From contig CAZJHY010000001.1 of NCBI GenBank assembly GCA_964545975.1, positions 24,094 to 88,093 of the forward strand: a stretch of DNA of 64,000 bases. Direction: 5' to 3'. The translations under genes and the position numbers were made by a program. This DNA comes from an uncultured Clostridia bacterium. Lineage in GTDB: Bacteria; Bacillota; DTU025; MWDF01. The notes under the pieces were generated by a model. It was not told the origin of the DNA. It worked only from the letters and a program-made list of their open reading frames with translations, and did not search any database. How positions within the stretch are numbered: the stretch's first letter is position 1; every line of letters starts with the position of its first letter. Shown here in pieces: positions 1 to 60,367 of the stretch.

Positions 1-328
1 AATCGTTTCCATATTGCGTGCGGCATTACTGATTAATATATTGCCTGCATGTATGGCATATCAATCTTCTTTGTGGCATATAGATGCGAAAATAGATAAT
101 GGAACAATGGGAACGGCTTGTGGTTACAGATTTGTAAAACTTTGTTGTATATCGCATCGCCACATGGCAAAGAACGAATAAAGTGCCATAGTATAAGCCG
201 ATTGCAGAACAATGGGGATTTTTGTGGAGAATGGAAGAGGATTTTCAATAACGATGGGGAATATCAATATTATATGAAATCCTTACCACATATGAGCGCA
301 GGTAAGTCTGTAGAAGGAAGGTGCGGCG

Positions 329-5480: not shown

Positions 5481-5491
5481 AGATTTTCCAA

Positions 5492-5524
5492 GGGCCGGGC
5501 CGCAGAATACCCGCGGTTCGGCCC
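5492..5524 (+). other. GC-rich intercistronic hairpin after SBP gene
   Basis: GGGCCGGGCCGC (loop 9) GCGGTTCGGCCC with 2-nt internal bulge. Confidence 0.45.
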
Positions 5525-5548
5525 ATCTCATGAATCGGGGGGATACGC

Positions 5549-6466: not shown

Positions 6467-6473
6467 GGCTGCG

Positions 6474-8227: not shown

Positions 8228-8952
8228 GTCTGGAGGGAACGCCGTTGCTTAGAATTAAGGGACTGAATGTATATTATGGTGCCATCCACGCCCTTAAGGG
8301 CATATCCCTTGAAGTCAACGAGGGCGAGATAGTAACCCTGATAGGATCGAACGGAGCAGGGAAAAGCACCACGATTAAAACCATAAGCGGGCTGATCGCT
8401 CCACACTCAGGAAGCGTGGAATTCCTTAACAAGCAGATAGGTGGCTTCCCTGCCCATCAGATCAATGCAATGGGTATCATCCAGATCCCCGAGGGAAGGA
8501 GGGTATTCCCTGAGATGACCGTCGGGGAGAACCTTCTGATAGGGGCATTCCTAAGAAAGGACACGAAAGGAATCAAGGATGATCTTGATAAGGTCTACGA
8601 CAGGTTTCCAAGGATGAAGGAAAGAGAAAGACAGGTAGCAGCAACTCTCAGCGGAGGAGAGCAGCAGATGCTGGCCGTCGGTAGGGCGCTAATGGCGCGC
8701 CCGAAGCTCCTGCTCCTAGATGAGCCGTCGATGGGCTTGGCTCCGATACTCGTAGACGAAGTGTTCGAGATAGTACAGGAGATCAACAGGCAGGGAACGA
8801 CGATACTTCTCGTCGAGCAGAACGCCAAGATGGCTTTAAGCGTTGCCAACAGGGGTTATGTGCTGCAGACGGGTGAGGTTGCGCTTTCGGGCACCGCCTG
8901 TGAACTGCTTCAGACTGAGGAGGTTAGAAAAGTATACCTAGGAGAGAGCTAG
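8221..8952 (+). CDS. ABC transporter ATP-binding protein, LivF family
   Basis: Walker A GSNGAGKST, LSGGEQQM, LLLDEPS. Confidence 0.9.
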   Translation: MLSLEGTPLLRIKGLNVYYGAIHALKGISLEVNEGEIVTLIGSNGAGKSTTIKTISGLIAPHSGSVEFLNKQIGGFPAHQINAMGIIQIPEGRRVFPEMTVGENLLIGAFLRKDTKGIKDDLDKVYDRFPRMKERERQVAATLSGGEQQMLAVGRALMARPKLLLLDEPSMGLAPILVDEVFEIVQEINRQGTTILLVEQNAKMALSVANRGYVLQTGEVALSGTACELLQTEEVRKVYLGES

Positions 8953-8980
8953 CGACATAACATTAACGGAGGTGCAACCA

Positions 8981-9868
8981 ATGTCTCTTAAGGTCAGAGG
9001 AATCATCCCTGCAATGGTCACGCCATTCGACAAAGACGGCAAGTTAAATCTGCCAGCGCTAAGGAAGCTTACGGATCACCTGATAGATGCAGGAGTCCAT
9101 GGGCTCTTCGCAGTAGGAGGCCAGGGCGAGTTCTGGGCTTTGGATGCTGAGGAGAAGAAGAAGGTAATTGAGACCGTCGTCGATGAGACCCGTGGCCGTG
9201 TGCCGGTATATGCAGGCACGGGAGCTGAGACCACCTGGGAAACCATCAAGCTGACCCAGATGGCCGAAGCGGCAGGCGCTGATGCCGTGTCGATAATAAC
9301 CCCTTACTATGTTGCCCCATCACAGGACGAGATGCTAGAGCACTACAAGATGGTGGCCAAGGCTACAAAGCTGCCAGTACTCATATATAACAATCCTCCA
9401 AGAACTGGGAATAACGTTTCGCCTGCCACCATGGAGAAGGCTTCCAAAGTGGAGAATATTGTTGGGGTGAAGGATTCGGGTGGCGACATGACGCAGGCTT
9501 GTGAATACATCAGGCGTACAAACAAGGATTTTGCAGTCCTGATGGGTCGCGATACGATGATTTTCGCCGGGCTATGTGTCGGCGCTAAGGGATCGATAAC
9601 CGCAACAGCAAACGTTGCTCCGAGGCTCGTCGTGGAGATTTTTGAAGCCTTCGTTGCCGGAGATATGGCAAGGGCGATTAAGGGCCAAGAGCAGCTAGCT
9701 CCTTTACGCTTAGCTTTTGAGCTAGGAACATTCCCTGTGGTAATCAAGGAAGGCCTTGAGCTGATAGGAATCGAGGCAGGGCCAACAAGAATGCCGGTGG
9801 GACCTATGAAGCCTGACAAGCGGGAAGAGCTGAAGAAGGTCCTCATAGATATGGGTCTTGTCAATTAA
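8981..9868 (+). CDS. DapA/NAL family pyruvate-dependent class I aldolase (dihydrodipicolinate synthase family)
   Basis: GxxGE and Schiff-base lysine motif IVGVKDSGGD; RBS AACGGAGG then ATG 8981. Confidence 0.8.
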   Translation: MSLKVRGIIPAMVTPFDKDGKLNLPALRKLTDHLIDAGVHGLFAVGGQGEFWALDAEEKKKVIETVVDETRGRVPVYAGTGAETTWETIKLTQMAEAAGADAVSIITPYYVAPSQDEMLEHYKMVAKATKLPVLIYNNPPRTGNNVSPATMEKASKVENIVGVKDSGGDMTQACEYIRRTNKDFAVLMGRDTMIFAGLCVGAKGSITATANVAPRLVVEIFEAFVAGDMARAIKGQEQLAPLRLAFELGTFPVVIKEGLELIGIEAGPTRMPVGPMKPDKREELKKVLIDMGLVN

Positions 9869-9901
9869 CCGGGCAATAGAAACAGGCAGACAGTCAATAA
9901 T

Positions 9902-9945
9902 AGCCCCCTTGCCAGAGAGTTTATGGTAGGGGGCTTCTTGATATT
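9902..9945. terminator. candidate bidirectional rho-independent terminator between convergent genes
   Basis: AGCCCCCT (18-nt loop) AGGGGGCT followed by TCTTGATATT; lies between + DapA-like and - MarR. Confidence 0.45.
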
Positions 9946-9991
9946 ATGAGTATGCTCTGTAGCATGGATATCGAGTTTCTGGCAAAGGTCA

Positions 9992-10414
9992 TTACATTCG
10001 CAATATCCTATAGGCACCTTTATAAAGTGCTGAGAACTCCTCTTCAGTCAAATTCAGGCACTCTGCCATCTTGTCGGGAATGCCCTTGGCCTTGGCCTTC
10101 AAATCCTTGCCTTCCTTCGTAAGGTTGATTATGACGCTTCTCTCATCCCTGGGATCTCTCGCCCTGGTTATAAGCCTCTGCCCTTCAAGCGATTTAAGAA
10201 GGGGAGTGAGAGTCCCCGAGTCGAGGAAGAGCCTCTCTCCGATGTCCTTGAGCCCTATCCCGTCCTCCTCCCACAGCACAAGCATCACGATGTATTTTGT
10301 ATAAGTGAGTTGTAAAGGCTCAAGGAAGGGCCTGTATCTTTTTATTATCTCCCTGGAGCAAGCATATAGAGGGAAACACAACTGAGCGTCCAGCTTCAAT
10401 AGGTCCTTTTCCAT
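9992..10414 (-). CDS. MarR family transcriptional regulator
   Basis: winged-helix MarR pattern (TYTKYIVMLVLWEEDGIGLKDIGERLFLDSGTLTPLLKSLEGQRLITRARDPRDERSV). Confidence 0.8.
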   Translation of the reverse strand: MEKDLLKLDAQLCFPLYACSREIIKRYRPFLEPLQLTYTKYIVMLVLWEEDGIGLKDIGERLFLDSGTLTPLLKSLEGQRLITRARDPRDERSVIINLTKEGKDLKAKAKGIPDKMAECLNLTEEEFSALYKGAYRILRM

Positions 10415-10437
10415 ACGCAGCCCTCCCTGTATGCTGC

Positions 10438-10971
10438 CTATAGCAGCTCCGCTATCTTACCGTCAAGGTCTTCGGGCTTTACCGTGGGTGAGAACCTTCC
10501 AACGACCTTGCCGTTTCTATCCACGAGGAATTTCGTGAAGTTCCATCGGATGTCGTCTCCCAGCACTGTCTGCTTGAGCTCCTCTAGCCGTTTTTTGAAC
10601 CTAGGCATATCCTCGTTCTCAAGTTCCGCCCTCGCCTCTTTCTTGAGGAAGGTTATCAATGGTTCGGCATTTTGCCCGTTAACATCTATCTTGGAGAAAG
10701 TCCTGAACTTGGTGCCGAAATTGAGCTGGCAGAACTCAACTATCTCGTCATTTGTCCCCGGAGCCTGGTTCAGGAATTGGTTGCTGGGGAAGTCGAGCAC
10801 CTCAAAGCCCCTGTCGCGGTATTTCTCATACAGGGCTTCAAGCCCCTTATATTGAGGTGTGAAGCCGCATTTGGTTGCGGTGTTAACTATTAGAAGAACT
10901 TTTCCCTTGTAATCGGACATGGACAAATCGTTGTACTTTGCGTCCTTGACCTTGAAATCATATATCGTCAT
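10438..10971 (-). CDS. glutathione peroxidase family protein
   Basis: GPx motifs NTATKCGFT, FPSNQF, WNFTKFLV. Confidence 0.85.
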   Translation of the reverse strand: MTIYDFKVKDAKYNDLSMSDYKGKVLLIVNTATKCGFTPQYKGLEALYEKYRDRGFEVLDFPSNQFLNQAPGTNDEIVEFCQLNFGTKFRTFSKIDVNGQNAEPLITFLKKEARAELENEDMPRFKKRLEELKQTVLGDDIRWNFTKFLVDRNGKVVGRFSPTVKPEDLDGKIAELL

Positions 10972-11065
10972 GGGATAACCTCCTCGATGTTAACATGTTA
11001 GACGATTAAATTGTATCAAATACAAACGGCATGTCAACATCATCCAAGGGGCTCTCCTTGATTTT

Positions 11066-11713
11066 CTACTTGTTCTGCCCGTAAGTCCTGCCGAGGGTGG
11101 AGACCAATGCCTTCACCTGTTCGTCAGTTAGTGAGGATGCCCTGCCTATTTGCGAGGCGTGTATATAGCACGAGCACATCTTCTCCAGAAGCTCGCACCT
11201 TTCAAGGGCCTTCTCAGGCGTGTCAGCGACGCAGACTGACCCGTGATTGGACATTATTGCTGCATTCTTGCTTCCTAGCGCCTTCGCGACGTTCTTTGCT
11301 AGGTCGTCGCTTCCAGACATAGCATAATCCGCTACCTCTACAGCGCCTCCGAAGCTGAAAGCGCATATATCAGTTATGACCGGAAGAGGCATCCTTGCTA
11401 CGCCAAGGGCTATCGCCATGGGTGAATGAACATGAACGACGGCTTTAACCTCAGGCCTGGCAATGTAGATCTCCCTGTGCAGCATGCTTTCTACCGAGGG
11501 CTTAAGCTTTGATGAGGAATACAGTGTCGCCAGATCCAGCTCTACTATCTGCTCAGGGGAAAGCGCCTCATAAGGTATGCCGCTGGGGGTTATCAGCATC
11601 CCGGTTCCTGATTCATTCCTGCAGCTGACATTCCCTCCGGTGCCTATAGTAAGCCCCATTTCCATCATCTTGATGCCGGTCTGGATAATTCTTCTGTTAA
11701 GCTGCTCGTTCAT
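11066..11713 (-). CDS. class II aldolase/adducin family protein (L-fuculose-1-P aldolase / L-ribulose-5-P 4-epimerase-like)
   Basis: TGIKMMEMGLTIGTGGNVSCR N-terminal motif, HVHSPMAIA metal-His motif. Confidence 0.8.
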   Translation of the reverse strand: MNEQLNRRIIQTGIKMMEMGLTIGTGGNVSCRNESGTGMLITPSGIPYEALSPEQIVELDLATLYSSSKLKPSVESMLHREIYIARPEVKAVVHVHSPMAIALGVARMPLPVITDICAFSFGGAVEVADYAMSGSDDLAKNVAKALGSKNAAIMSNHGSVCVADTPEKALERCELLEKMCSCYIHASQIGRASSLTDEQVKALVSTLGRTYGQNK

Positions 11714-12151
11714 CTTTCTCCTCCATCTGTGGCTGTTGTATTGCCAGTACGAAATTATACAGTCAATTGCATATTAATATAGCACAATAACCTAACCAGG
11801 TGCGAAGGAGCACGCTGTTTTTAATGTGAGTCAAATACATTGCAAAAGCACAGCATAAAAGCGGTATTGCTTGCATCAGCAGGACACTGCTTCCTGAATA
11901 CTGGATTCAGCTTCCTGACGCTTGTCTAGGCAGTTTGATGTATATTTTCCTCCACATAAATGATATTCTATATTAAAGCGTTTCCGGATAGTTGTATATT
12001 ATTGGTACAATCTCCATTAGTATACAATCCAGAAAGGGGTGTTCGGCAGGCAGCTAACCACGGTAGTACCAAAATTACTAGCGACCAATCGCAAGTGGGA
12101 CAAGAAATCAATCTCCAGCGAGAAGTATAAGCAATTAGGGGAGGGAATCTT

Positions 12152-13162
12152 GTGAAGAGAACATTGTTAATCGCGGTTGTACTAGTCATGGCACTAACCA
12201 TCGTAACCGGCACTTTCGCAGCGACTACGCCTCTGTTGGTATCGGGCGGCGGTCTTAAGACGACCACTACCGTCAAGGCCAACTCGAAGTATCTCATCGC
12301 TTGCATCGTTAAGAACTCCACCAATCCTTACATGATCAAGCAGCTTGACGGCTTCAAAGCCGCCGGCGCATTCATGGGCTTCGACGCCGTCGCACTGGCT
12401 CCCGCCAAGGCCGACAACATCGAAGAGCAGGTCAAGATAATCGAAGACCTCATCCAGAAGGGCGTCAAGGGCCTCGTCATCCATCCTTCCGACTCCAACG
12501 GCATAGTCCCGATAGTCGAGAAGGCCATGTCGCTCGGCATCCCCGTGGTCGTAATAGGTACCCCGGCGAATACCGACAAGATATTCTTCCGCACCGGCAT
12601 GGACTATACCGACTCTGGCCGCAAGATCACCGAAGCTGCCATCCAGAAGATGGGCGGCAAGGGCAACGTCATAATACTTGAGGGCCCGCCCCAGGCGATC
12701 AACGCCAAGGAAAGGCTCAACGGCATGCTCGAAACTATAGCCAAGTACCCCGGCGTAAAGGTGCTTGACTCCCAGACCGCAAACTTCAACAGGCTCAACG
12801 CCCTCCAGGTCATGGAGAACCTCCTTCAGAAGCACAAGGACGTGCAGGGAGTCTTCGCGGCCAACGACGAGATGGCCCTCGGCGCGATCCAGGCTCTTGA
12901 AGCCGCCGGCAGGAAGAACGTGGTAGTCTCCGGCGTCGACGGAAGCAAGGACGCCTCGCAGGCGGTCCTCGAAGGCAGGCTCACAGTGACCTCGAATGCA
13001 GACCCCTATTCCAGCTCCTGGTGCGCCGCAGCATACATCGTGAAGTACTTGAACGACGGCACCATGCCGCCCTCCAAGTTCATCCCGTATCCCGCTGAAG
13101 TCGCCATCATCGACAAGAGCAACGTTCAGAACTACATCAACAACGACGCGTGGTGGAAGTAG
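12152..13162 (+). CDS. sugar ABC transporter substrate-binding protein (RbsB/ribose-type PBP family)
   Basis: signal peptide, type I PBP with FAANDEMALGA motif; GTG start after GGGGAGGGAA. Confidence 0.85.
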   Translation: MKRTLLIAVVLVMALTIVTGTFAATTPLLVSGGGLKTTTTVKANSKYLIACIVKNSTNPYMIKQLDGFKAAGAFMGFDAVALAPAKADNIEEQVKIIEDLIQKGVKGLVIHPSDSNGIVPIVEKAMSLGIPVVVIGTPANTDKIFFRTGMDYTDSGRKITEAAIQKMGGKGNVIILEGPPQAINAKERLNGMLETIAKYPGVKVLDSQTANFNRLNALQVMENLLQKHKDVQGVFAANDEMALGAIQALEAAGRKNVVVSGVDGSKDASQAVLEGRLTVTSNADPYSSSWCAAAYIVKYLNDGTMPPSKFIPYPAEVAIIDKSNVQNYINNDAWWK

Positions 13163-13180
13163 TCTCATAGAAGTCCTGCT

Positions 13181-13210
13181 ATGGAGCCCTGTCGCAAGAC
13201 GGGGCTCCAT
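13181..13210 (+). other. GC-rich intercistronic hairpin after SBP gene
   Basis: ATGGAGCCC (loop 12) GGGCTCCAT, 9 bp perfect stem. Confidence 0.5.
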
Positions 13211-17619: not shown

Positions 17620-18843
17620 ATGAAGACTATCGCAGTGATAACCTCGCTGGACACGAAGGGGAAAGAGACCCTCTATATAAAGGATGCGATCGAGAGGTTC
17701 GGCTCGAAGGCTCTCATCATAGACGTAGGGGTCAAGGAGCCGCCATATTTCACGCCTGATATCGCAAGGCACGAGGTGGCCGCCGCCGCCGGCATCGACT
17801 GGGATACGGTGAAGGACAAGGAGAAAAGGGTGAGGATAAGCACCATGACCTCAGGCCTTGAGGTGCTTATACCCAAGCTATATGCCGAGGGGAAGCTTTC
17901 GGCCGTGTTCTCGATGGGAGGCCTTCAGAACACAACGATGGGAACATCGGCGATGAAGACCCTGCCGCTCGGGGTGCCTAAGCTCATGCTTTCCACGATG
18001 GCGTCCAGCAACAGGCCTTTCGGTCCGTTCGTGGGAACCAAGGACATGACCCTCATGCACTCGGTGGGCGACATCCTAGGGGTAAACCCCGTCACCAAGG
18101 CCGTGATGGATAACGCCGTCGGAGCCATCGTGGGGATGGCGGAGCACGCCGGAAACAGGGTGCAGAAAACTGACAGGATCCTTGTGGGTGCCACTATGCT
18201 CGGCGTAACGAACGACGGAGTGAGCCGCGCGGTATCCTACCTCGAGGAGGCAGGCTACGACGTGGTCACCTTCCATGCGAACGGTGCGGGAGGACCGGCC
18301 ATGGAGGAGCTCATAGGACAGGACACGATAGACGCCGCGATGGATCTTACGCTGCATGAGATAGACGCTGAATTCTTCGGGGGGCACTGTTCGGGGGCGA
18401 CCAACAGGCTCCTTATGGCCGCCGAGAAGGGGATACCCCAGGTTGTTTCGCTTGGTGCCTCCGACGTCATAGACTATGAGGTCGTGGACCTCGACAAGGT
18501 AAGGGAGTATGGAAGGCGCAAGTTCGTCTATCAGCACCCCACCATCCAGCACATAAAGCTCATAGAGGAAGAGGCGCACAAGGTCGGGACGGTAATCGGG
18601 GAGAGGCTCTCAAAGGCCAAGGGTCCCCTAACCCTCGTCATACCTAGGGGAGGCTTCCACCAGAGCAGCTACAAAGGCGGTCCCATATGGGATCCTGCCA
18701 TCGACGAGATAATCATAGGACACATACTAAGCAGGATTGCGCCTTCCACAAGGGTGGTAGAGACCGCAGCCCATATCAACGAGCCCGCCTTCAGCAGGGT
18801 GGCGGCCGATGAGATGATTAAGCTTCTGAAGGCCATGCGCTAA
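17620..18843 (+). CDS. UPF0261 (Tm-1-like N-terminal domain) family protein
   Basis: N-terminal MKTIAVITSLDTKGKE pattern and ~400 aa length typical of UPF0261; product by recollection of family only. Confidence 0.5.
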   Translation: MKTIAVITSLDTKGKETLYIKDAIERFGSKALIIDVGVKEPPYFTPDIARHEVAAAAGIDWDTVKDKEKRVRISTMTSGLEVLIPKLYAEGKLSAVFSMGGLQNTTMGTSAMKTLPLGVPKLMLSTMASSNRPFGPFVGTKDMTLMHSVGDILGVNPVTKAVMDNAVGAIVGMAEHAGNRVQKTDRILVGATMLGVTNDGVSRAVSYLEEAGYDVVTFHANGAGGPAMEELIGQDTIDAAMDLTLHEIDAEFFGGHCSGATNRLLMAAEKGIPQVVSLGASDVIDYEVVDLDKVREYGRRKFVYQHPTIQHIKLIEEEAHKVGTVIGERLSKAKGPLTLVIPRGGFHQSSYKGGPIWDPAIDEIIIGHILSRIAPSTRVVETAAHINEPAFSRVAADEMIKLLKAMR

Positions 18844-18875
18844 GCAGGGCCAGAAGCCTCACAAGGAGGATTCCG

Positions 18876-20132
18876 ATGTTCTACGGACTGCCTTTCGACA
18901 ACCCCGAGTCCATTTATGGCAGGGATTACGTTCTGGGCACCTATTTCGTGACCGGCGTCACAGGAGACGATGCGCTTAATAAGCTGGGCATGTTTGCAGT
19001 CGGCCAGTCCACCGGCACGTGGATGCCGGTGCCCGGCATAACCAGGCAGATGGTGGAGGATCATCAGGGAAGAGTCGTCGGATGCTATCCGGTGCCCGCC
19101 CAGGAGCCCGGCGCCTACGTTCTTAGGGTGGCGTTTCCCTACAGCAACATAGGCGGGTCCATCTCGATGCTGCTTACCACGCTTGCGGGAAACGACGCTT
19201 CGACTGCGCTGTGCGCGAAGCTCATAGACGTGGAGCTTGTCGGCAAGGCGAAGTCGGCCTTCCACGGTCCGCACTTCGGAATAGACGGGGTGAGGAAGCT
19301 CACGGGAGTCTACGACAGGCCCATAGTCATGAATATGATCAAGCCTTGCACGGGCTTTCCGGCTACGGCAGGGGCGGAGTTCTTCTACGCGTCCGGATCA
19401 GGCGGCGTAGACATAATAAAAGATGACGAGCTTATGGGCAACACCAGCTTCAATTCCGTCGCCGACAGGGTGAGGGAGTATGGTAAGGCTCAAGCGAGAA
19501 TCGGAGGAGAGAGGGGCAAGGCCCCTATATACCTTCCCAATGTGACCGACAGGCACGATAAAATGCGCGACAACATCAAGGCGGCGATAGACGGCGGAGC
19601 GAAGGGCGTCATGGTCAACTTCGTCTTCACCGGACTCGACAGCCTTGCCGCGCTTACATCGGAGTTCGGCGACAAGGTGATGTTCCTCGCTCATGCGGCA
19701 GGAGTTGGCGTCATGACCGGTTATCCGCAGGGCTTAAGCACCTCGCTTCTTCTAGGAAGGCTCGGAAGGCTGGCAGGCGCGGACGCGGTGGTCACCCTTT
19801 ATCCTCTCGGCATGGGAGGAGACGGCTTCCAGGAGCTTCAGATGACGGTGCAGAAGCACAGGCTGCCTCTGGGAGATGTCAAGCAAGCCTTGACCGTGGT
19901 CGGAGGAGGCGTCACGCCGCTTACCGTACCGTTTGCGGTGAAGAGCTTCGGCAAGGACATAATCATCGCCGTTGGCGGTGGCATCCAGGGCCACCCGGAC
20001 GGGGCGACGGCAGGCGCAAAGGCCATGATGGCTGCGGTGGATGCGACCATGAAGGGCGTAAGCCTGGAAGACGCGGTTAAGGACAGCCCGGAGCTCGGAA
20101 GGGCGATAACCAGATGGGGCAAGAAGGCTTAA
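18876..20132 (+). CDS. RuBisCO-like protein (form IV RuBisCO large-subunit homolog)
   Basis: GGVDIIKDDE aligns with RuBisCO GGLDFTKDDE (carbamylated Lys and Mg ligands retained); IKP (K175 equivalent) present; no small subunit or PRK nearby; RBS AAGGAGGA. Confidence 0.8.
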   Translation: MFYGLPFDNPESIYGRDYVLGTYFVTGVTGDDALNKLGMFAVGQSTGTWMPVPGITRQMVEDHQGRVVGCYPVPAQEPGAYVLRVAFPYSNIGGSISMLLTTLAGNDASTALCAKLIDVELVGKAKSAFHGPHFGIDGVRKLTGVYDRPIVMNMIKPCTGFPATAGAEFFYASGSGGVDIIKDDELMGNTSFNSVADRVREYGKAQARIGGERGKAPIYLPNVTDRHDKMRDNIKAAIDGGAKGVMVNFVFTGLDSLAALTSEFGDKVMFLAHAAGVGVMTGYPQGLSTSLLLGRLGRLAGADAVVTLYPLGMGGDGFQELQMTVQKHRLPLGDVKQALTVVGGGVTPLTVPFAVKSFGKDIIIAVGGGIQGHPDGATAGAKAMMAAVDATMKGVSLEDAVKDSPELGRAITRWGKKA

Positions 20133-30506: not shown

Positions 30507-30520
30507 GACGGAGGTTACAT

Positions 30521-30907
30521 ATGCCTGATCTTAGAATGCTTGACGGGGCCATTGCAGGTGTCCTTCATCTGGAGGAGCACTCGGACCTCTTCTCTGAGCT
30601 GAGGGAGTTCCTCACCGAAGGAGGATGGACCGAGGTGGTCATCACAGGATGCGCCGGTTCCCTTGAGAAAGCGGTGGCAAATTACCCCAGGGACATGACG
30701 CTTCCTCCCATAGTGGAGCATGTGGTCATGGAAGGGGCATACGAGGTGTGCACCCTGAACGGGAACGTAACCTGGTACGAGGGGAAACCCAAGGTGCACA
30801 TACACGGATCGTTTGCGGAGAAGGGCACCAAGGTCTACGGAGGGGCCATCGGGGACGGCACCAGGATATTCAAGTCTGCGGACCTGTTCGTCCTCTGCCA
30901 TAAGTAG
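30521..30907 (+). CDS. PPC/DUF296 domain protein
   Basis: ~128 aa; pattern of PPC (plants and prokaryotes conserved) domain; RBS ACGGAGGT. Confidence 0.5.
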   Translation: MPDLRMLDGAIAGVLHLEEHSDLFSELREFLTEGGWTEVVITGCAGSLEKAVANYPRDMTLPPIVEHVVMEGAYEVCTLNGNVTWYEGKPKVHIHGSFAEKGTKVYGGAIGDGTRIFKSADLFVLCHK

Positions 30908-30912
30908 TCGCA

Positions 30913-30941
30913 GCAGCCCGCCTCGACCAGAGGCGGGCTGC
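30913..30941 (+). terminator. stem-loop downstream of PPC gene (weak terminator)
   Basis: GCAGCCCGCCT (loop) AGGCGGGCTGC 11-bp stem; no clear U-tail. Confidence 0.4.
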
Positions 30942-31079
30942 CTCACTGGCAAAACTTTACATAGTGCAATATATATGTTTTAATACTGTTGTCGGTCCGC
31001 CCTCAGGACCGAATTCCATCCTATTGTCATCGATTTGCCGCCAAGGCTTTGTTTACGTAGTTTGAGGGGTGTATACGAA

Positions 31080-31249: not shown

Positions 31250-31618
31250 ATGGCTTCAGTAAGGGATCTGACTTCATTCATCAGAAGACCGGGCGCGTTC
31301 GAGAGCATAAGGTGTGGAGTATGCGGAAGCATATGTGATGTGGAGAGGGGCGCGATGGGGCCTACGTGCTTCGTGGAGGCCATGGCCGGCAGGTCAAGAG
31401 AACATGACAGGTTCGAGTGCCCTCACACAGGCGAGGCTTGGCACGACAGGTGCCTCATATTCCACTCTGCATGGAGGCACATCGACGACTGGGAGCTGAC
31501 AGAAGTCGCCCGCGAGGAGCTTCTGGCGGCAGTGAGGGAGAATGCCGGGGGCGACAATGCTGAATGGGTGGAATCCGCCTCCGAATGCGAAGGCGGCGCG
31601 GTCAGGTGGCGGGAATAA
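31250..31618 (+). CDS. hypothetical Cys/His-rich small protein
   Basis: CGVCGSIC...CPH...C motifs; RBS GAAAGGGG; terminator downstream. Confidence 0.5.
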   Translation: MASVRDLTSFIRRPGAFESIRCGVCGSICDVERGAMGPTCFVEAMAGRSREHDRFECPHTGEAWHDRCLIFHSAWRHIDDWELTEVAREELLAAVRENAGGDNAEWVESASECEGGAVRWRE

Positions 31619-38567: not shown

Positions 38568-39245
38568 ATGAAGCTTTTGAGAGCGTCTAAGATCCTACTT
38601 GTGATGATAATACTAGTTATGCTTTCCGGGTGTTTAAATGCCAGCTACTATTTCAATTTTGCAGATGAGCAGTCTGTTTCGAATGCCGAGGGCGAATGGT
38701 TGCTGCAGGGGGAGGGCCTCACCGGGTTCAATGCTTTCGGGATTTATGTAAACGGAGTGTGTCTAACATCCCCTTTGAAATTCGCAGGAGACTTCTCGGT
38801 AACAGCCAACTTCTGGCTTGGAGTTACTGCCGAGTATCCGGGTTATGTTGGGGTCGTGCTCTCTGATTTGCCCTTCGAGGGATTACCCGGAAATTGGTTG
38901 GACATCGAATTCTTAGACTTAGCCACAGATAACGAGACGCTCAGGATAACAGACAGCGACGGTACTGAGTTATTCACCCATGCGGATGCATTAGGCGAGA
39001 TAAAGGCATTGAACAAAGGTCATTGGAACAAGCTGGAGGTCAGTAAGAAAGGCAATAGGATCACCCTGAGCGTGAACTCGAGAAGGCTTTCTGCGTTCGA
39101 CATTGTTTATTGCTCGGCTGACTACCTGTACTTAAATATCGTATCTGAGTCAAGTTCCGTAGAGGATCCAACCGACCCATCGCTTGGCTTCATACTAAAA
39201 GATGTGAAGGTCGATTACATGGAAGGACAGGCCGCAACTTTGTAA
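38568..39245 (+). CDS. hypothetical lipoprotein
   Basis: signal peptide with lipobox LSGC; no recognisable domain. Confidence 0.55.
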   Translation: MKLLRASKILLVMIILVMLSGCLNASYYFNFADEQSVSNAEGEWLLQGEGLTGFNAFGIYVNGVCLTSPLKFAGDFSVTANFWLGVTAEYPGYVGVVLSDLPFEGLPGNWLDIEFLDLATDNETLRITDSDGTELFTHADALGEIKALNKGHWNKLEVSKKGNRITLSVNSRRLSAFDIVYCSADYLYLNIVSESSSVEDPTDPSLGFILKDVKVDYMEGQAATL

Positions 39246-54590: not shown

Positions 54591-55016
54591 CTACTTGGCA
54601 GGCATATCGGGCCTCTCAAGCTCACCATAGGCCTTAAGAAGGATGCCTATCTGACCTGAGAGCCTCTCCATGCGCCTCATCCAGGAAGCTAGCTGGACCA
54701 TGCCCTCTTCGCTAAGCATGTAGACCCGCCTTGCCGGACCTGTGCCGCTTGTGTCCCACTCGGAGTAGGTGAAACCCATCATGTCCATCCTTCTGAGGGT
54801 GCGATAGACAGCTGCCTGATCCATCTCAGTGTCTGCAACAGATAGCCTGGATGCCTCCTGGGCTATCTGGTACCCGTGCGCCTTTCCCAGCTTTGCAAGG
54901 GCTATGGCGACTACAGGCACCATGAACCTGAACATCTTGCCGAGCCCGTGTCCCTCCATGCCCCCCTCAATGCCGCGCATCCTGCCCAACCCGAAACCGC
55001 CTCTTGCTCCGTGCAT
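54591..55016 (-). CDS. PadR family transcriptional regulator
   Basis: GYQIAQ...YRTLRRM...RRVYMLSEEG wHTH; Gly-rich N-terminus; true start may be Met at 54935. Confidence 0.7.
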   Translation of the reverse strand: MHGARGGFGLGRMRGIEGGMEGHGLGKMFRFMVPVVAIALAKLGKAHGYQIAQEASRLSVADTEMDQAAVYRTLRRMDMMGFTYSEWDTSGTGPARRVYMLSEEGMVQLASWMRRMERLSGQIGILLKAYGELERPDMPAK

Positions 55017-55143
55017 GATATCACTCCTTTAAGTGTCATTAACATCTATATACATTAAGCATAATGATGTGTCAATAGAGAAAGTAAAGCGATGGCGTTG
55101 ACACGGAAGCTTTGCTGTGCGATTTTCATATTGAGGTGATCGA

Positions 55144-55362
55144 ATGATTGAGATAAGGGGCAGGGTTCCCCTCGAGAAGTACTCCGGTTTCTTACCAGTC
55201 TCTTCTGACACAAAGGTAAGGCAGCTCTTCGACATCCTCGGCATCCCCGAGGATCTCAGAGGTTACATACTTGCCATAAGAAACGGCAAGATAATCCAGC
55301 ACAGCGACATTGTTGCGGACGGAAGCGCAATCGATCTGATTATTATCCCCGAGGGCGGTTGA
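55144..55362 (+). CDS. ThiS/MoaD-like ubiquitin-fold small protein ending in Gly-Gly
   Basis: 72 aa, C-terminal IRNGKII...ADGSAIDLIIIPEGG. Confidence 0.65.
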   Translation: MIEIRGRVPLEKYSGFLPVSSDTKVRQLFDILGIPEDLRGYILAIRNGKIIQHSDIVADGSAIDLIIIPEGG

Positions 55363-55496
55363 TCCTCGAAGGCATCCGAAAAACATGTGAAATGTGCCGC
55401 TGAAAAGGCGGCACATCTCTTATACCTGAAGGAATATGTCAACAGATGAAGAAACATACTCCGACGGGCCGACAGCCCGTAAAAGGAGTGAGGCAT

Positions 55497-57107
55497 ATGG
55501 CAATGAGGATGATCAAATTCCTCGCGGCGGCTATCCTTCTATCAATGCTAACCGGCGCAGCCGCCGGAGCGCCTGTTCCTGTGACGCCCCTGATAAACCT
55601 TCCGCCTTCTGTCCTTACTACGAAGATAACCAGCCTTGCCCTCTCAAACCTCATAACCATGGGCGATGTCGAGGGGACCACCTTCGGGGCATCAAGAAAC
55701 CAGATGGTGGCTCTTGACGCTGAGGGCAAGGTGACAAGGACCATAGCGATACCGATAGAGCAGCCCGCAGGCATATCGGCATATACGGCGGGCAAGGCGA
55801 TAGTGGGCGACGCTGGGACCGGCTCGGTTTTCTCGGTGGACGTCAGGTCAGGCCAGGCGATTAAGCTGCTGGACTTAAGGTCCACCCAAGCCGGAAGCCT
55901 GATTGCAGGCGATATCCTGAAAAGCGGCAGGCTTTCGAGCGTGGCATTCGACGGCAAATATGTATACGTGGCGATATCGGCAGGATACTCAAGCTCCATT
56001 TTCGCGGTCGACCCTGCGACCAACAGGGCGCTCATGCAGGCATGGTCGCCTGGAGACGAACCGACCGCCATGCAGTTCACGGCAGGAAACCTCTATGTGC
56101 TGGACGGGGCGAACGGACAGCTGAGGCTCTATGATTCCGCGTTCAAGCTAAGCATGCAGTCCATCGACCTTGCAGTACCCGATGCGAAAGGCATAGTCAT
56201 AAGGGGCAACGAAGTAAGGGTGCTCTCGCCTACGGAAAGGAGCATCACCCTTCTTAAGCCGGACCTGAACCTTCTCAAGATACAGCTGATAGAACCGGTC
56301 TGGCGGCCGATAGATGTGGTGATCGGCCCCATACTCACACTTGCGAGGCACTATGCCCTCCTTATCTGCGGCGATGTCGCCGAGAGCGGGTACGATGAGT
56401 TCTGGAACGACACCGTATGGATGTACAAGACGCTTCTTGACGCAGGGTACAAGGAGGACAATATTTATGTCCTCTATGGCTGGGGAAACGATTACATCTC
56501 AGCCAATCCAAACTACAAGCACGCCAGCAAGGTCACCGACTTCCCGGCTACAGTCGCATGGGTGAACAAAGTCCTGAACGGCTTGAAGAACGGAGACTCC
56601 TCCATAGGGGTCAACAAGCTGACGGCGAATGACAGCCTGTTCATTTGGGTGTTCGACCATGGAGGAGGGGGAAACCCCGCATACTTCTGCCTTAGAGACG
56701 GAGTGTATTACGATTCGGATTTCGCCAACAGCCTGAACCCCCTTCCTTACAGCAAGAGGGCGATTTTCATGCAGCAGTGCAGAAGCGGAGGCTTCCTGGA
56801 CAACATGCAGAATGACAGGAGCTTCGTGTCTACAGCCTGCCTTTGGAGCGAGAATGCGCACAGGTCAGATTCGGAGAATGAAACCTACGGAGGGAAAATA
56901 TACCATCACGGCGAGTACAATTACTATGTAATAAGCGCTTTGGCAGGCAAGACCGCGACTGGCGCCTCCGTGAACGCGGACAGCAACGGAGACGGCAAGA
57001 TAAGCGCCAGGGAGATGCACCAGTTCATGAGCGCCAGGGAGAATCAGCCCGAGACCCCGCAGATATGGGACAGCTTCGGAATAGGTAGCAGCTTCGCGGT
57101 GAAGTAA
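55497..57107 (+). CDS. secreted beta-propeller plus C13 (legumain-like) cysteine peptidase domain protein
   Basis: signal peptide; C-terminal LFIWVFDHGGGG (His motif) and AIFMQQCRSGGF (Cys motif) as in legumain/GPI8. Confidence 0.65.
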   Translation: MAMRMIKFLAAAILLSMLTGAAAGAPVPVTPLINLPPSVLTTKITSLALSNLITMGDVEGTTFGASRNQMVALDAEGKVTRTIAIPIEQPAGISAYTAGKAIVGDAGTGSVFSVDVRSGQAIKLLDLRSTQAGSLIAGDILKSGRLSSVAFDGKYVYVAISAGYSSSIFAVDPATNRALMQAWSPGDEPTAMQFTAGNLYVLDGANGQLRLYDSAFKLSMQSIDLAVPDAKGIVIRGNEVRVLSPTERSITLLKPDLNLLKIQLIEPVWRPIDVVIGPILTLARHYALLICGDVAESGYDEFWNDTVWMYKTLLDAGYKEDNIYVLYGWGNDYISANPNYKHASKVTDFPATVAWVNKVLNGLKNGDSSIGVNKLTANDSLFIWVFDHGGGGNPAYFCLRDGVYYDSDFANSLNPLPYSKRAIFMQQCRSGGFLDNMQNDRSFVSTACLWSENAHRSDSENETYGGKIYHHGEYNYYVISALAGKTATGASVNADSNGDGKISAREMHQFMSARENQPETPQIWDSFGIGSSFAVK

Positions 57108-57160
57108 TGCAACAGAAAACCGAGCCACAGGAACCCGGCTGAGCATCAGGAAGCGGCAGG

Positions 57161-58297
57161 TCAGGACCTGCCGCTTTCCTTCTTGTTCTTGTACATAAGC
57201 TCGTCAATCCTTCTTAGGAACTGCTCCGCCGTCATCTTCGACTCCGGCATGTATATCGACCAGCCGTAGCTAAGGACCAGAGGGAAAGGAAACCTTTCAA
57301 GCCTGTTGAAGTCGTTGAAGCTCTCCCTTATCCTTTCAACGGTCCTTGTCAGGGCCTCATCCGAGCTCATCTTGGGAGCTATGACCAGGAATTCATCGCC
57401 GCCGTACCTGGCGATGAAGTCGTCTGACCTGAGGCTTCTTTTCAGTATGTCCGCGGTGACTCTAAGCGCCTCATCGCCGGTGCTGTGGCCGTACTTGTCA
57501 TTTATCTCCTTGAAACCGTCTATATCCATGAATATTCCGCTGAAGCCTCCATCCTTGGAGGCGGATCTGATCTGGGAGTTGAGGAAGGAATCTATGTCCC
57601 GCCTGTTAGACACCCCCGTCAGATAATCGGAACCCAGCTCAGTCTCCTGAAGGTTCATATAGGTGAATAGGAGCATAAGCGTCACTCCTGCCCACATCGA
57701 CGGCATGCCGTAAAGGAAAGCCTGCAGTATGCCGCCTGCAGTTGGAGGAACATTGAAAAGCAGGAGGGTATAAAAAGCCCTTTTAGAAAATCTCCGCCTG
57801 TTCAGATAGGTTATGCAAAGTGAGTAGAAGATATAAAGGGTATACATGGCGGCAATCAGCGCGAAACCAGGCCCTCTTTCATATACATTTGCGCTGTCTA
57901 CGCTGAACATGAAACCCGTGTAAGCCGTAGCGAGAGTCGGGATCACCTGCACAAGCCCCGGGATGATGAGGATTGCATTGAGAGTTCTGTTCCATACCGT
58001 GTCCCCGAATATCTTGGAATGCAGGTAGACTATCCATAGATAGAAGGCCAGAGCCCCCGATGTATAATAAGCGATGTTGAAAGCGTAGTTCAGAAGGATG
58101 CAATAAGGATGTGGCCTCTTGTCTACCGCCCAGGCAAGGGCTTCGAAGGCGATGACAAGGATGGTGGCATAGATAAGCCGTATAAATGGCCTCTGCTTAT
58201 GCGACCTCAGCTCGTTCTGATTCCTTATGCCGGTGAGTATAGCCCCCAGAATCATCATTGAGAAGAGGCTCATGCTCACCTGAAGAATCGTATACAT
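57161..58297 (-). CDS. membrane-anchored GGDEF diguanylate cyclase
   Basis: 6-7 TM N-terminus; RYGGDEF motif. Confidence 0.85.
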   Translation of the reverse strand: MYTILQVSMSLFSMMILGAILTGIRNQNELRSHKQRPFIRLIYATILVIAFEALAWAVDKRPHPYCILLNYAFNIAYYTSGALAFYLWIVYLHSKIFGDTVWNRTLNAILIIPGLVQVIPTLATAYTGFMFSVDSANVYERGPGFALIAAMYTLYIFYSLCITYLNRRRFSKRAFYTLLLFNVPPTAGGILQAFLYGMPSMWAGVTLMLLFTYMNLQETELGSDYLTGVSNRRDIDSFLNSQIRSASKDGGFSGIFMDIDGFKEINDKYGHSTGDEALRVTADILKRSLRSDDFIARYGGDEFLVIAPKMSSDEALTRTVERIRESFNDFNRLERFPFPLVLSYGWSIYMPESKMTAEQFLRRIDELMYKNKKESGRS

Positions 58298-58421: not shown

Positions 58422-60044
58422 ATGGAAAACCCGGCGAGGGATGCTTCGAAGGCGAAGCTATTCAAAGGAGCTGCCATACTTGCGGCTGCCAGCCTGTTTG
58501 CAAGGGTCCTGGGGGCAGTGTACCGCATACCTCTGGCCAACATGCTTGGAGACGAGGGCATGGGTCTGTTCGAGATGGCAAACCCCATATACTTCTTCCT
58601 GCTTTCGATATCCGTATCGGGCATACCACTTGCCATATCGAAGCTCATAGCTGAGAAGAAGGCAAAAGAGGACGGCCTGGGGGCAAGCAGGGTAGTGAAG
58701 GTCGCAGTGGCAATGATGGCAGCGGCAGGGCTTGCCGCGAGCCTCTCGCTTTTCATCCTTGCTCCCTATATTGCAGAGAGGGTCTTCCACGATCCAAGGT
58801 CGGTTCTTCCCCTGCGGGCGATTTCACCTGCGCTTGCGTTCATGACGGTCATGTCTGCGATGAGGGGCTACTTCCAGGGGATGCAAAGAATGGGTCCATC
58901 GGCTGTCTCCCAGATGATCGAGCAGGTGGCTAGGGTGGCCTTCATGCTGCTTATGGCGATGCTGCTTCTCCCGAAGGGCATCGAATACGGCGCGGCTGGC
59001 GCTGCAAGCGGTGCTGCAGTTGGCGCCTTCATGGGGATGGGCTTCCTGCTTATGGCCTACTACCTTCTCAGGAAAAGGACTGACTACCACATACCACGCG
59101 GGAATGCCGCTCAAGAATCCGGCAAGGGCATAGCCTACAGGATACTGAGGCTTGCCGTGCCGGTGTCGATAACAGGATCCCTGGCATCGATAAAAAGCGT
59201 CATAGATGCGGCTATCGTGCCTGGAAGGCTCGCTCGCGCCGGGTTTGCCCAAAGCGAGGCCACCGCGCTCTACGGCCAGTTCAACGGCATGGCCTATCCT
59301 ATAGTGTACTTCCCCACTTCAATAACAGCCGGCATAGCATCTGCCGCCGTGCCTTCAATTGCGGAATGCCACGCCAGGGGGGATGCAGCAGGAATCCGCG
59401 AAAGGTCGATATATGTCCTGAAGCTGACCAGCATAATCGCCATACCGGCAACAGCGGGGCTGCTGGTCCTGGCCTCCCCTATTACCTCCCTGCTGTACGG
59501 AAGGCCGGATGTAGGCCCGATTCTCGCAACGCTTTCGGCGGCGAGCGCCCTTCTGTGCCTGCAGCAGACCAGCGCGTCCATATTAAGCGGAATGGGGTTC
59601 GTTGCAGACCCTCTAATAAGCGCGCTCATAGGGGTGCTGGCGAAAATCGCCCTTGAGTTCTGGCTGACGTCCATGCCCGGGCTCAATGTGAAGGGGGCTG
59701 CCATCAGCACGGTGGTCGGATCGCTTATTACAGTTGTGATTAACCTCATGAGGGTTGAGAAGAGGCTTGGCATAAAGGTGGGCTATGCCAAAGCATTCTC
59801 GGGTCCGATGGTAGCCTCACTGATCATGGGTGCCGCAGTATTCGCGTTCAGGGCGCTTGCTTTGCGGCTCTTGCCCGAAGGCAGGCTCATAACAGTTGCA
59901 GCGGTGGGAGTAGGAGGCGCGGTCTATGCCGCAGCAGTGCTTCTCATGGGCATAATGACTGCAGAGGAGCTGGAGGCTATACCGCTTATGGGAAGGCATG
60001 CGGCAAGGCTTTCGTCCAAATTGGGGGCAAGGAGGGGCAGATGA
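58422..60044 (+). CDS. MOP superfamily flippase (SpoVB/MurJ-like polysaccharide biosynthesis protein)
   Basis: ~540 aa, 14-TM pattern typical of SpoVB/MurJ. Confidence 0.7.
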   Translation: MENPARDASKAKLFKGAAILAAASLFARVLGAVYRIPLANMLGDEGMGLFEMANPIYFFLLSISVSGIPLAISKLIAEKKAKEDGLGASRVVKVAVAMMAAAGLAASLSLFILAPYIAERVFHDPRSVLPLRAISPALAFMTVMSAMRGYFQGMQRMGPSAVSQMIEQVARVAFMLLMAMLLLPKGIEYGAAGAASGAAVGAFMGMGFLLMAYYLLRKRTDYHIPRGNAAQESGKGIAYRILRLAVPVSITGSLASIKSVIDAAIVPGRLARAGFAQSEATALYGQFNGMAYPIVYFPTSITAGIASAAVPSIAECHARGDAAGIRERSIYVLKLTSIIAIPATAGLLVLASPITSLLYGRPDVGPILATLSAASALLCLQQTSASILSGMGFVADPLISALIGVLAKIALEFWLTSMPGLNVKGAAISTVVGSLITVVINLMRVEKRLGIKVGYAKAFSGPMVASLIMGAAVFAFRALALRLLPEGRLITVAAVGVGGAVYAAAVLLMGIMTAEELEAIPLMGRHAARLSSKLGARRGR

Positions 60045-60367
60045 TGCTAAACGAGCTGGCAGCAAGGCTCAATGACACCGCCGTAAGGCACGGATGGTGG
60101 GATGAGGACAAGCCTTTTCCGGAGGTGATAGCCCTTTGCCATAGCGAGCTGTCTGAAGCCCTGGAGGAGTACCGGGCGCACAGAAGGCTGGATGAGGTCT
60201 ATTTGAACGGCGGCAAACCGGAGGGGATACCGGTAGAGCTGGCTGACTGCATGATAAGGATACTTGATTTCTGCGGAAGGCATGGCATCGACATAGATGC
60301 AGCCCTGGAGGCTAAGGCTGCCTATAACGAATCAAGGCCATTCAGGCACGGCGGAAAGAGGATCTGA
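60041..60367 (+). CDS. MazG-like nucleotide pyrophosphohydrolase domain protein
   Basis: EAxE-type motifs HSELSEALEE and ELADCMIRILD; overlaps upstream stop. Confidence 0.6.
   Translation: MMLNELAARLNDTAVRHGWWDEDKPFPEVIALCHSELSEALEEYRAHRRLDEVYLNGGKPEGIPVELADCMIRILDFCGRHGIDIDAALEAKAAYNESRPFRHGGKRI

Follow-up and report, generated by a model that had tools for sequence, protein, structure and literature searches.

The locus lies within a 64-kb stretch of DNA that was analysed as a whole (the window) and consists of two co-directional genes: a small gene for a 72-aa protein that ends in Gly-Gly and is predicted to have a β-grasp fold, and a larger gene for a protein that combines a β-propeller with a C13 peptidase domain and is predicted to be secreted (Table 1). 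The distance of 134 bp between them, as given in an initial annotation of the same DNA, holds when the second gene is read from its probable start, M18 of the ORF spanning 55446–57107. A Shine–Dalgarno sequence, AAGGAG (55483–55488), lies 9 nt upstream of the M18 codon, the homologues begin at the equivalent Met, and gene callers give the same 536 aa in loci L001 and L002. Both products are new members of known families.

Table 1 Features of the ThiS-like and C13 gene locus (coordinates are those of the window)
Feature	Coordinates	Strand	Basis
Divergent PadR-family regulator (context only)	54591..55016	-	Pfam PadR, 47 bits
Shine–Dalgarno GAGGTGA of the small gene	55133..55139	+	Read from sequence
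Small gene, ThiS/MoaD/SAMP2-like putative β-grasp protein, 72 aa	55144..55362	+	ORF translation, Pfam, PDB profile
GC-rich hairpin between the two genes, 12 pairs	55389..55419	+	Terminator-like scan
Propeller–C13 peptidase gene, 536 aa from probable start M18	55497..57107	+	Start, Shine–Dalgarno, homologues
Sec-type signal peptide MAMRMIKFLAAAILLSMLTGAAAGA, then P	55497..55571	+	Read from sequence; putative cleavage site
β-propeller, ~5 blades, residues ~59–270	55620..56255	+	AF2 pLDDT >90, ~20 strands
Peptidase C13 (legumain/GPI8-like) catalytic domain	56343..56960	+	Pfam PF01650, Foldseek, alignment
His405 codon	56658-56660	+	DHGGGG motif
Cys445 codon	56778-56780	+	QQCRSGG motif
EF-hand/dockerin-like Ca-binding loop NADSNGDGKISAREM, near the C-terminus	56964..57032	+	Weak Pfam EF-hand matches
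Strong terminator-like hairpin 3' of the C13 gene, 13 pairs	57149..57178	+	Terminator-like scan

The 72-aa protein terminates in IIPEGG, and both glycines (G71 and G72, directly before the stop codon) are invariant in all nine aligned family sequences. Its match to Pfam ThiS (PF02597; E = 1e-3, 20 bits) falls just under the cut-off of 22.5 bits, which the orthologues in L009 and L010 exceed (23 and 24.2 bits). Searched against the PDB, a profile of the family finds SAMP2 (5lda_B, 2.7e-7), PF1061 (4e-7), 1ryj (6e-6) and TtuB (9e-3). The AF2 model, computed from the single sequence (pLDDT 67), has the β-β-α-β-β-β order of a β-grasp-like fold, and the top Foldseek matches of this low-confidence model are all TtuB, ubiquitin, SUMO, SAMP2, ThiS or MoaD, at non-significant scores (E > 0.1). 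The initial description of a ThiS/MoaD-like protein with a Gly-Gly end stands. A dN/dS of 0.05–0.09 against close relatives indicates strong purifying selection and excludes a chance ORF. The protein has no signal peptide and is predicted to be a cytoplasmic sulfur carrier.

A profile search of 5.8 billion proteins shows the family to be rare, its members forming about 15 clusters at 90% identity. A word-indexed homology search with the single 72-aa protein returned two near-identical matches only; the wider set came from an exhaustive phmmer search followed by the profile search. One member, P0109, encoded on a 123-kb NCBI contig, is 100% identical to the window protein. Four phmmer matches (P0112, P0114, P0116 and P0119) were rejected as spurious, being long eukaryote-like repeat proteins matched only through short repeated 'LxDILGxPDEL' or 'DG..ELIYV' motifs. 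Upstream of the ThiS-like gene, an Rfam search found no riboswitch of the TPP or Moco/Wco type, either in the window or at L009, L069, L074 and L072.

The signal peptide of the second protein has a basic n-region, a hydrophobic core and a c-region of small residues, without a Cys lipobox, and an equivalent hydrophobic N-terminus is found in 36 of 36 homologues. In the AF2 model (pLDDT 87.9), an N-terminal hydrophobic helix (residues 16–39) is followed by a low-confidence linker. From its sequence, the protein is predicted to be exported and to act outside the cytoplasm. Foldseek matches the propeller to that of glutaminyl cyclase (3mbr, with E = 1.3e-10 and TMt 0.69) and to NHL domains; the profile of the protein further matches the designed Pizza6 propellers. 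No Pfam match of the propeller to Glu_cyclase_2 or NHL was found at E < 0.01, and one truncated homologue is named 'YncE family protein' by NCBI. The fold is like that of bacterial/plant-type glutaminyl cyclases and NHL/YncE-like propellers, except that here it is fused to a protease domain.

The C13 domain matches Pfam PF01650 over residues 302–487 (36 bits against a cut-off of 22.8 bits), and most homologues carry a precomputed match to the same family. Its model has a caspase-like α/β/α fold, with Foldseek matches to human legumain (TMt 0.70–0.73; 4n6o, E = 5e-10, TMt 0.70) and GPI8 (7wld_K, E = 2.5e-10). The DHGGGG and QQCRSGG motifs, which correspond in an alignment to NHGA and EACESG of legumain, contain His405 and Cys445, both invariant across 36 homologues; the signal peptide, propeller and catalytic motifs read in the initial annotation are all present. 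In the EF-hand/dockerin-like loop close to the C-terminus, which also weakly matches a dockerin half-repeat, E523 is invariant, and N510, A511 and D512 nearly so. The protein shares the fold and the His–Cys dyad, in the same motifs, with legumain/asparaginyl endopeptidase and GPI8 (family C13, clan CD), but at only ~16–18% sequence identity, and it is prokaryotic and has a predicted Sec signal. Compared with legumain, an N-terminal five-bladed propeller takes the place of the C-terminal LSAM prodomain, and the EF-hand/dockerin-like loop is added. This propeller–C13 family is common to anaerobic-digester Bacillota, Armatimonadota and Methanothrix archaea, at 44–48% identity.

The hairpin between the two genes has a T-run on its minus-strand side only. 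It is kept in L001, L004 and L005, and a single change in L005 leaves the affected pair as G–U. It may be a weak or bidirectional terminator, or an mRNA-stabilizing stem; because there is no good U-tract on the plus-strand side, transcription probably continues through it into the C13 gene. The hairpin 3' of the C13 gene overlaps the 3' end of a convergent GGDEF gene. Upstream, a P-type ATPase gene controlled by a NiCo riboswitch sits between the PadR and ThiS-like genes in relatives, where the spacer of about 300 bp corresponds to the NiCo riboswitch of this divergent ATPase.

As the initial annotation had stated, no thi, moa or E1 genes lie nearby: neither Pfam, across the 60 ORFs of the window, nor tblastn detects ThiF/MoeB, MoaE, ThiG/H, AOR or molybdopterin-enzyme genes. 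E1, MoaE, AOR and other pterin enzymes are likewise missing from the fetched flanks of same-lineage loci, so that no partner or client of the putative sulfur carrier is found in either place. Neither the window nor any related locus has an E1, E2 or JAMM domain, and the ubiquitin-like (Ubl) gene is thus not clustered with an E1 gene accompanied by an E2 or JAMM/DUB gene. PADLOC returned no match to any defence system.

The ThiS-like and C13 genes are adjacent only within one syntenic block, which spans ~12 kb in one lineage of Bacillota MAGs and has the order EamA–tautomerase–GNAT–PadR–[ATPase]–ThiS-like–[VanZ]–[C13]–GGDEF–flippase–p108–MFS–MFS–PHP (brackets mark genes that vary). The whole block is kept in L001–L005, L009, L010, L013, L015, L069–L071, L074–L076 and L086–L089; adjacency of the two genes is therefore no better kept than the background gene order. 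A metagenome scan with a narrower alignment, A3, gave four loci, all from this block. Within the lineage, the ThiS-like, (VanZ) and C13 genes remain co-directional and together across ThiS-like identities of 46–100%, an order compatible with an operon but not evidence for one. Most members of the lineage have VanZ between the ThiS-like and C13 genes. ThiS-like and VanZ genes are co-directional and 42–130 bp apart in every clade of the block other than that of the window (L009, L010, L069–L071, L074–L076, L082 and L086–L089), and VanZ precedes C13 in L015. The window clade (L001–L005) has lost VanZ and kept the ThiS-like gene under strong purifying selection.

The two genes are separable in both directions. 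L074–L076 and L082 have the ThiS-like, VanZ and GGDEF genes and lack C13. Conversely, the ThiS-like gene is absent from over 45 C13 loci elsewhere (in other Bacillota, Armatimonadota, Methanothrix and Bacteroidota). In L006–L008, a C13 protein 72–74% identical to that of the window is encoded downstream of a LarA-like gene, and no ThiS-like gene is present; L011 and every Methanothrix, Armatimonadota, Acidobacteriota and Bacteroidota locus likewise lack one. Among 65 genome loci, neither a small ORF ending in GG nor a weak ThiS-like HMM match was found near C13 outside the block, and no gene is seen repeatedly beside C13 in different phyla. The co-occurrence in other genomes that the initial annotation had proposed to check does not extend beyond shared synteny in this one Bacillota block.

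The more distant relatives of the 72-aa protein point to another context. P0117, P0120, P0121, P0126 and P0128, which are only 28–35% identical to it and may differ from it in function, are encoded in an operon of the form GntR–ThiS-like–RraA–Ldh_2–AOR–cupin–TRAP or directly before an AFOR_N gene; every distant relative with readable context is linked in this way to a tungsten aldehyde:ferredoxin oxidoreductase (AOR). MoaD-like genes in AOR operons (aorD/aorE) are proposed tungsten-cofactor maturation factors (PMC6365974), and in Thermococcus an AOR-family enzyme depends on small Ubl sulfur carriers for its tungsten cofactor (PMC11323500). Like the window protein, UblB of Thermococcus kodakarensis (PMC11323500) and AorD/AorE of Aromatoleum aromaticum (PMC6365974) have ~70 aa and end in Gly-Gly; they are β-grasp proteins, the fold also predicted for the window protein. 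The window lineage differs from these systems in having no AOR or pterin-cofactor gene nearby. With ThiS/MoaD, archaeal SAMP2/PF1061 and Thermus TtuB, the window protein shares a similar length, a DG-x-I/V-x-(I/L) motif, the terminal GG and HMM and profile similarity, but its gene stands outside the thiSGH/thiF, moaDE and ttuABC contexts.

We consider it likely that the ThiS-like and C13 genes are functionally unrelated and neighbours by descent, the one encoding a cytoplasmic sulfur carrier without an operon and the other an unrelated secreted cysteine protease. The initial annotation had instead read a Gly-Gly tail beside a C13 transpeptidase as a hint of protein tagging. A pair of this kind, in which a legumain/GPI8-like enzyme would attach, remove or mature the ubiquitin-like protein, would fit the co-directional adjacency in the window clade (the genes are two apart in L009, L010, L069–L071 and L087–L089), the transamidases and ligases among C13 enzymes, with Foldseek matches here to GPI8 and asparaginyl ligases, and the fact that SAMP2 and TtuB are conjugable to proteins. 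However, the distribution largely refutes it: either gene can be present where the other is missing, their adjacency is confined to a fully syntenic block in which VanZ commonly intervenes, C13 has no conserved partner across phyla, and the distant ThiS-like relatives are AOR-linked. The two products are also predicted to occupy different compartments, since all C13 homologues carry a signal peptide and the small protein carries none, and a conserved hairpin separates their genes. The 72-aa protein already ends at Gly-Gly, so no processing protease is needed, and its tail reads IIPEGG, whereas characterized legumains of family C13 cleave after Asn or Asp. With no E1 or JAMM gene nearby either, we find the tagging pair scarcely credible.

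Joint action of the ThiS-like protein and the membrane protein encoded by VanZ, perhaps within an envelope module that responds to PadR or to metal and gained C13 later, would account for the close, co-directional pairing of these genes throughout the block outside the window clade and for VanZ preceding C13 in L015. It is nonetheless very unlikely, as the window clade maintains the ThiS-like gene under strong selection without VanZ, every example belongs to a single syntenic lineage, the AOR-linked relatives have no VanZ, and we know of no mechanism linking β-grasp GG proteins with VanZ. To a more elaborate version, in which the ThiS-like protein, detached from its AOR/tungsten context, was recruited with VanZ and the secreted propeller–C13 protein into a co-transcribed envelope module and serves as covalent tag or transpeptidation substrate in legumain-type catalysis, we attach next to no weight. 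The ThiS-like protein might also be a dual-function modifier of the SAMP2/TtuB/Urm1 type, unrelated to C13 and acting in tRNA thiolation, lysine conjugation or both rather than in cofactor synthesis. Its best PDB profile matches are SAMP2, PF1061 and TtuB and not canonical MoaD or ThiS, its gene lies apart from any thi or moa genes, and Ubl sulfur carriers can stand in for one another functionally and can also be conjugated (PMC11323500). Set against this are the AOR linkage of the distant relatives and the absence of a TtuA/NcsA, E1 or JAMM gene adjoining any family member examined, and we judge this reading unlikely.

Under the preferred reading of two unrelated neighbours, and by analogy with known sulfur carriers, an E1-like enzyme of the MoeB/ThiF/UbaA type encoded elsewhere would adenylate the C-terminal Gly-Gly of the 72-aa protein and turn it into a thiocarboxylate, which would then donate its sulfur. 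The most likely acceptor would be the synthesis of a pterin (tungsten or molybdenum) cofactor, given that the nearest distant relatives are encoded at the head of AOR operons or immediately before them; in the Bacillota lineage of the window, the ThiS-like gene would have left this context and now stand alone. The downstream gene, which stands alone in many phyla, would encode a Sec-exported cysteine endopeptidase of family C13 acting outside the cytoplasm. The probable role of its five-bladed propeller is either to bind substrate or to control the active site.

Were tagging true, a ubiquitin-like protein would be attached by a new route, with a legumain-type transpeptidase in place of the E1–E2 cascade; given the evidence against it, the practical value is modest. 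The analysis places a rare family of 72-aa MoaD/ThiS-like proteins, the deeper members of which are encoded in AOR operons and are probably sulfur carriers for the tungsten cofactor. It also describes an uncharacterized family of propeller–legumain proteases, predicted to be secreted, that may be of interest when prokaryotic asparaginyl endopeptidases or ligases are sought.

The best-supported reading of the locus is that of two independent genes, whose features are collected in the table below. Both ORFs exist as the initial annotation described them, a Gly-Gly protein being encoded 134 bp upstream of a peptidase C13 gene. The small gene is a real gene: compared with its close relatives in L001, L004 and L005 (fetched loci of the window's own clade), it shows dS of 0.37–0.68, dN of 0.034 and dN/dS of 0.05–0.09. 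The Pfam ThiS match of its product (E=1e-3, 20 bits) lies just below the 22.5-bit cut-off, which the orthologues of the related loci L009 and L010 exceed (23 and 24.2 bits). Only ~7 genuine clusters, each of 72–73 aa, came out of an exhaustive phmmer comparison with 1.8 billion representatives, and profile searching in 5.8 billion proteins gave a family of 15 clusters, one member of which is named 'MoaD/ThiS family protein' by NCBI. Residues M1, Y13, P35, D59, G60, G71 and G72 are invariant in an alignment of nine sequences. Against solved structures, the family profile matched SAMP2 (5lda_B, 2.7e-7), PF1061 (4.2e-7), 1ryj (6e-6) and TtuB (9e-3). A single-sequence AF2 model has the beta-grasp order of elements at moderate confidence (pLDDT 67); all its Foldseek matches are ubiquitin-like or sulfur-carrier proteins, none of them significant. 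We conclude that the small protein is a ThiS/MoaD/SAMP2-type Gly-Gly protein.

Features of the locus, of related loci and of other parts of the window
Feature	Position	Strand	Remarks
Shine-Dalgarno of small gene	55133-55139	+	GAGGTGA, rated good
ThiS-like ORF	55144-55362	+	72 aa, ending IIPEGG, then stop
Hairpin	55389-55419		GC-rich, 12 bp, between the two genes; T-run on minus-strand side only
C13 ORF	55446-57107	+	likely start M18 at 55497
Signal peptide	N-terminus of C13 protein		MAMRMIKFLAAAILLSMLTGAAAGA; hydrophobic helix (AF2 model)
Linker	after signal peptide		low confidence (AF2 model)
Beta-propeller	residues ~59-270		~20 strands, giving ~5 blades (AF2 model)
Alpha/beta domain	residues ~300-553		AF2 model
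EF-hand/dockerin-like loop	56964-57032 (residues 507-529)		NADSNGDGKISAREM; C-terminus of C13 domain
NiCo riboswitch RF02683	L009:4879-4967, L069:5428-5515, L074:5760-5855	-	35-41 bits; gathering score 37
p108 gene	60041-60367	+	108 aa; no Pfam match; overlaps upstream flippase gene by 4 bp
UPF0261 gene, then RuBisCO-large-chain-like gene (PF00016)	17620-20132	+	flanking genes: sugar ABC transporter, isomerase, aldolase, kinase
338-aa ORF	12194-13210	-	no Pfam match; odd composition; perhaps an antisense artefact opposite a plus-strand gene that was not called
ORF	30515-30952	-	no Pfam match
ORF	31250-31618	+	no Pfam match
225-aa ORF	38568-39245	+	no Pfam match; lipoprotein-like N-terminus

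M18 is the most likely start of the large protein; it lies 9 nt after AAGGAG, and the starts of homologues and the 536-aa gene calls in relatives agree with it. The protein matches Peptidase_C13 (36 bits; Pfam cut-off 22.8) and contains the DHGGGG and QQCRSGG motifs noted initially, in which H405 and C445 correspond in alignment to the His and Cys motifs of legumain and are invariant across 36 homologues. An alignment-based AF2 model (pLDDT 87.9, pTM 0.84) comprises four elements. Its propeller is similar to that of bacterial and plant glutaminyl cyclases (Foldseek 3mbr, E=1.3e-10, TMt 0.69), with NHL domains also matching, and its C-terminal domain is similar to human and plant legumains (TMt 0.70–0.73) and to GPI8 of the human GPI-transamidase (7wld_K, E=2.5e-10). 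The loop at the end of this domain, with a near-invariant NAD...E, is reminiscent of the calcium site of an EF-hand or a dockerin, a hint that the protein may depend on calcium or dock in a cohesin-like manner; Pfam EF-hand matches are weak.

The C13 family has more than 100 members, many already named 'C13 family peptidase' in public records. About 90 have the ~540-aa propeller–C13 layout of the window protein, and more distant members match in the C13 half only. Hosts are Bacillota, Armatimonadota, Acidobacteriota and Methanothrix/Methanotrichaceae, mostly from anaerobic-digester and sediment metagenomes. Full-length proteins share 44–48% identity among these bacterial phyla and methanogenic archaea, in similar anaerobic habitats, and comparison of the archaeal loci (L014, L016, L017 and L023) with the window gene suggests horizontal transfer between domains. 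In the archaeal copies the C-terminus is extended by ~40–60 aa.

Conservation of the pair was assessed in 65 genome loci with C13 homologues, using tblastn, the small-family HMM and a listing of all GG-ending small ORFs. Of these loci, only L004 and L005 (both of the window's clade), L009 and L010 contain a ThiS-like gene. All genes around the pair in the window were mapped onto the loci, which revealed a syntenic block, EamA, tautomerase, GNAT(-), PadR(-), [P-type ATPase(-)], ThiS-like, [VanZ], [C13], GGDEF(-), flippase, p108, MFS, MFS and PHP, common to L004, L005, L009, L010, L013, L015, L069–L071, L074–L076 and L086–L089 (bracketed genes are variable). Because the block is shared whole, the ThiS-like/C13 adjacency is conserved no better than the surrounding gene order. 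ThiS-like, VanZ and C13 genes occur together in L009, L010, L069–L071 and L087–L089; in the clade of family member P0115 (L074–L076), GGDEF follows ThiS-like and VanZ and there is no C13 gene, and on the short P0127 contigs (L082, L083) VanZ follows ThiS-like. In the fetched loci, no C13 gene outside the block has a ThiS-like neighbour, including those of L006–L008, which encode proteins 72–74% identical to the window's downstream of a LarA-like gene, and no C13 neighbour recurring across phyla was found. The juxtaposition is best read as a lineage-specific accident of gene order. The p108 protein is 73–95% identical throughout the block.

The P-type ATPase and VanZ genes are both absent from the window clade. 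In relatives, a ~300-bp spacer upstream of the ThiS-like gene holds the opposite-strand NiCo (nickel/cobalt) riboswitch, located in the 5' leader of the ATPase gene between PadR and ThiS-like and lost from the window clade together with the ATPase. The hairpin between the two window genes is kept in L001, L004 and L005; the one change seen, in L005, leaves a G-U pair. Given the side on which its T-run lies, it is at best a weak plus-strand terminator, and transcription may pass through it; a weak terminator, an RNA stabiliser and a remnant of the VanZ region that was deleted are candidates. No minus-strand gene reads into it. Elsewhere in the window, the genes flanking the UPF0261 and PF00016 genes suggest that this is a cluster of the RuBisCO-like-protein sugar or sulfur-salvage type.

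The ThiS-like gene was correctly called orphaned for the 64-kb window: no thiamine, pterin-cofactor, E1 or AOR genes were found by Pfam analysis of 60 ORFs or by tblastn with AOR, RraA, Ldh_2, a molybdopterin oxidoreductase, VanZ and ATPase queries. No Rfam family, TPP and Moco/Wco riboswitches included, reached threshold near the gene, and PADLOC gave no match. Distant members of the small family (28–35% identity) are P0121 (Tepidanaerobacteraceae), P0126 (Thermovorax subterraneus), P0117, P0120 and P0128. From genomic context, P0121, P0126 and P0128 each head an operon read as GntR, ThiS-like, RraA-like, Ldh_2, AOR (AFOR_N/AFOR_C), cupin and TRAP transporter (DctQMP; L072/L073/L077–L080, ~5270–12200), conserved in Thermovorax and Tepidanaerobacteraceae-like genomes. 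The short P0120 contig ends after ThiS-like, RraA-like and Ldh_2, and an AFOR_N gene directly follows P0117. The operon seems to encode an uncharacterised pathway for the catabolism of an organic acid or aldehyde, and it carries a MoaD-like gene of its own. Canonical ThiS and MoaD proteins, although far more numerous, gave no phmmer match to the window protein at E<1e-3, and the AOR-linked members that do match it are therefore its nearest outgroup.

Tungsten-cofactor maturation is the proposed role of the MoaD-like genes known from AOR operons (aorD/aorE; PMC6365974). In Thermococcus, an AOR-family enzyme depends on small Ubl sulfur carriers for its tungsten cofactor, and these carriers also become conjugated to proteins (PMC11323500). 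The main alternative to cofactor synthesis is tRNA thiolation or SAMP-like conjugation. SAMP2 and TtuB are among the profile matches, but the nearest relatives are AOR-linked, and a SAMP2/TtuB-like modifier or tRNA-thiolation factor acting independently of C13 seems rather unlikely. A functional pairing with VanZ draws on the tight ThiS-like–VanZ spacing (42–130 bp) in every clade of the block other than the window's, yet the window clade has lost VanZ while its small gene remains under strong purifying selection, and we consider such a pairing very unlikely. The initial description of the two proteins is correct; the protein-tagging chemistry initially proposed for them is unsupported and extremely improbable. 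The adjacency occurs inside a single block and the genes are evolutionarily separable, the two products are assigned to separate compartments by prediction, the small protein is made with its Gly-Gly end and so requires no processing, and legumain-type enzymes recognise Asn/Asp, not a Pro-Glu-Gly-Gly tail; a direct interaction is therefore unlikely.

As two independent genes, the 72-aa protein would be a cytoplasmic sulfur carrier, its terminal Gly adenylated by an E1 encoded elsewhere and converted to a thiocarboxylate that would then donate sulfur, most plausibly to pterin cofactor synthesis, since the nearest relatives are AOR-linked. The C13 protein would be exported by Sec and act as an extracytoplasmic cysteine endopeptidase, with the propeller probably a substrate-binding or regulatory module. 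The MoaD/ThiS and C13 annotations of these proteins are already in public records, and both proteins are new, uncharacterised members of these known families.
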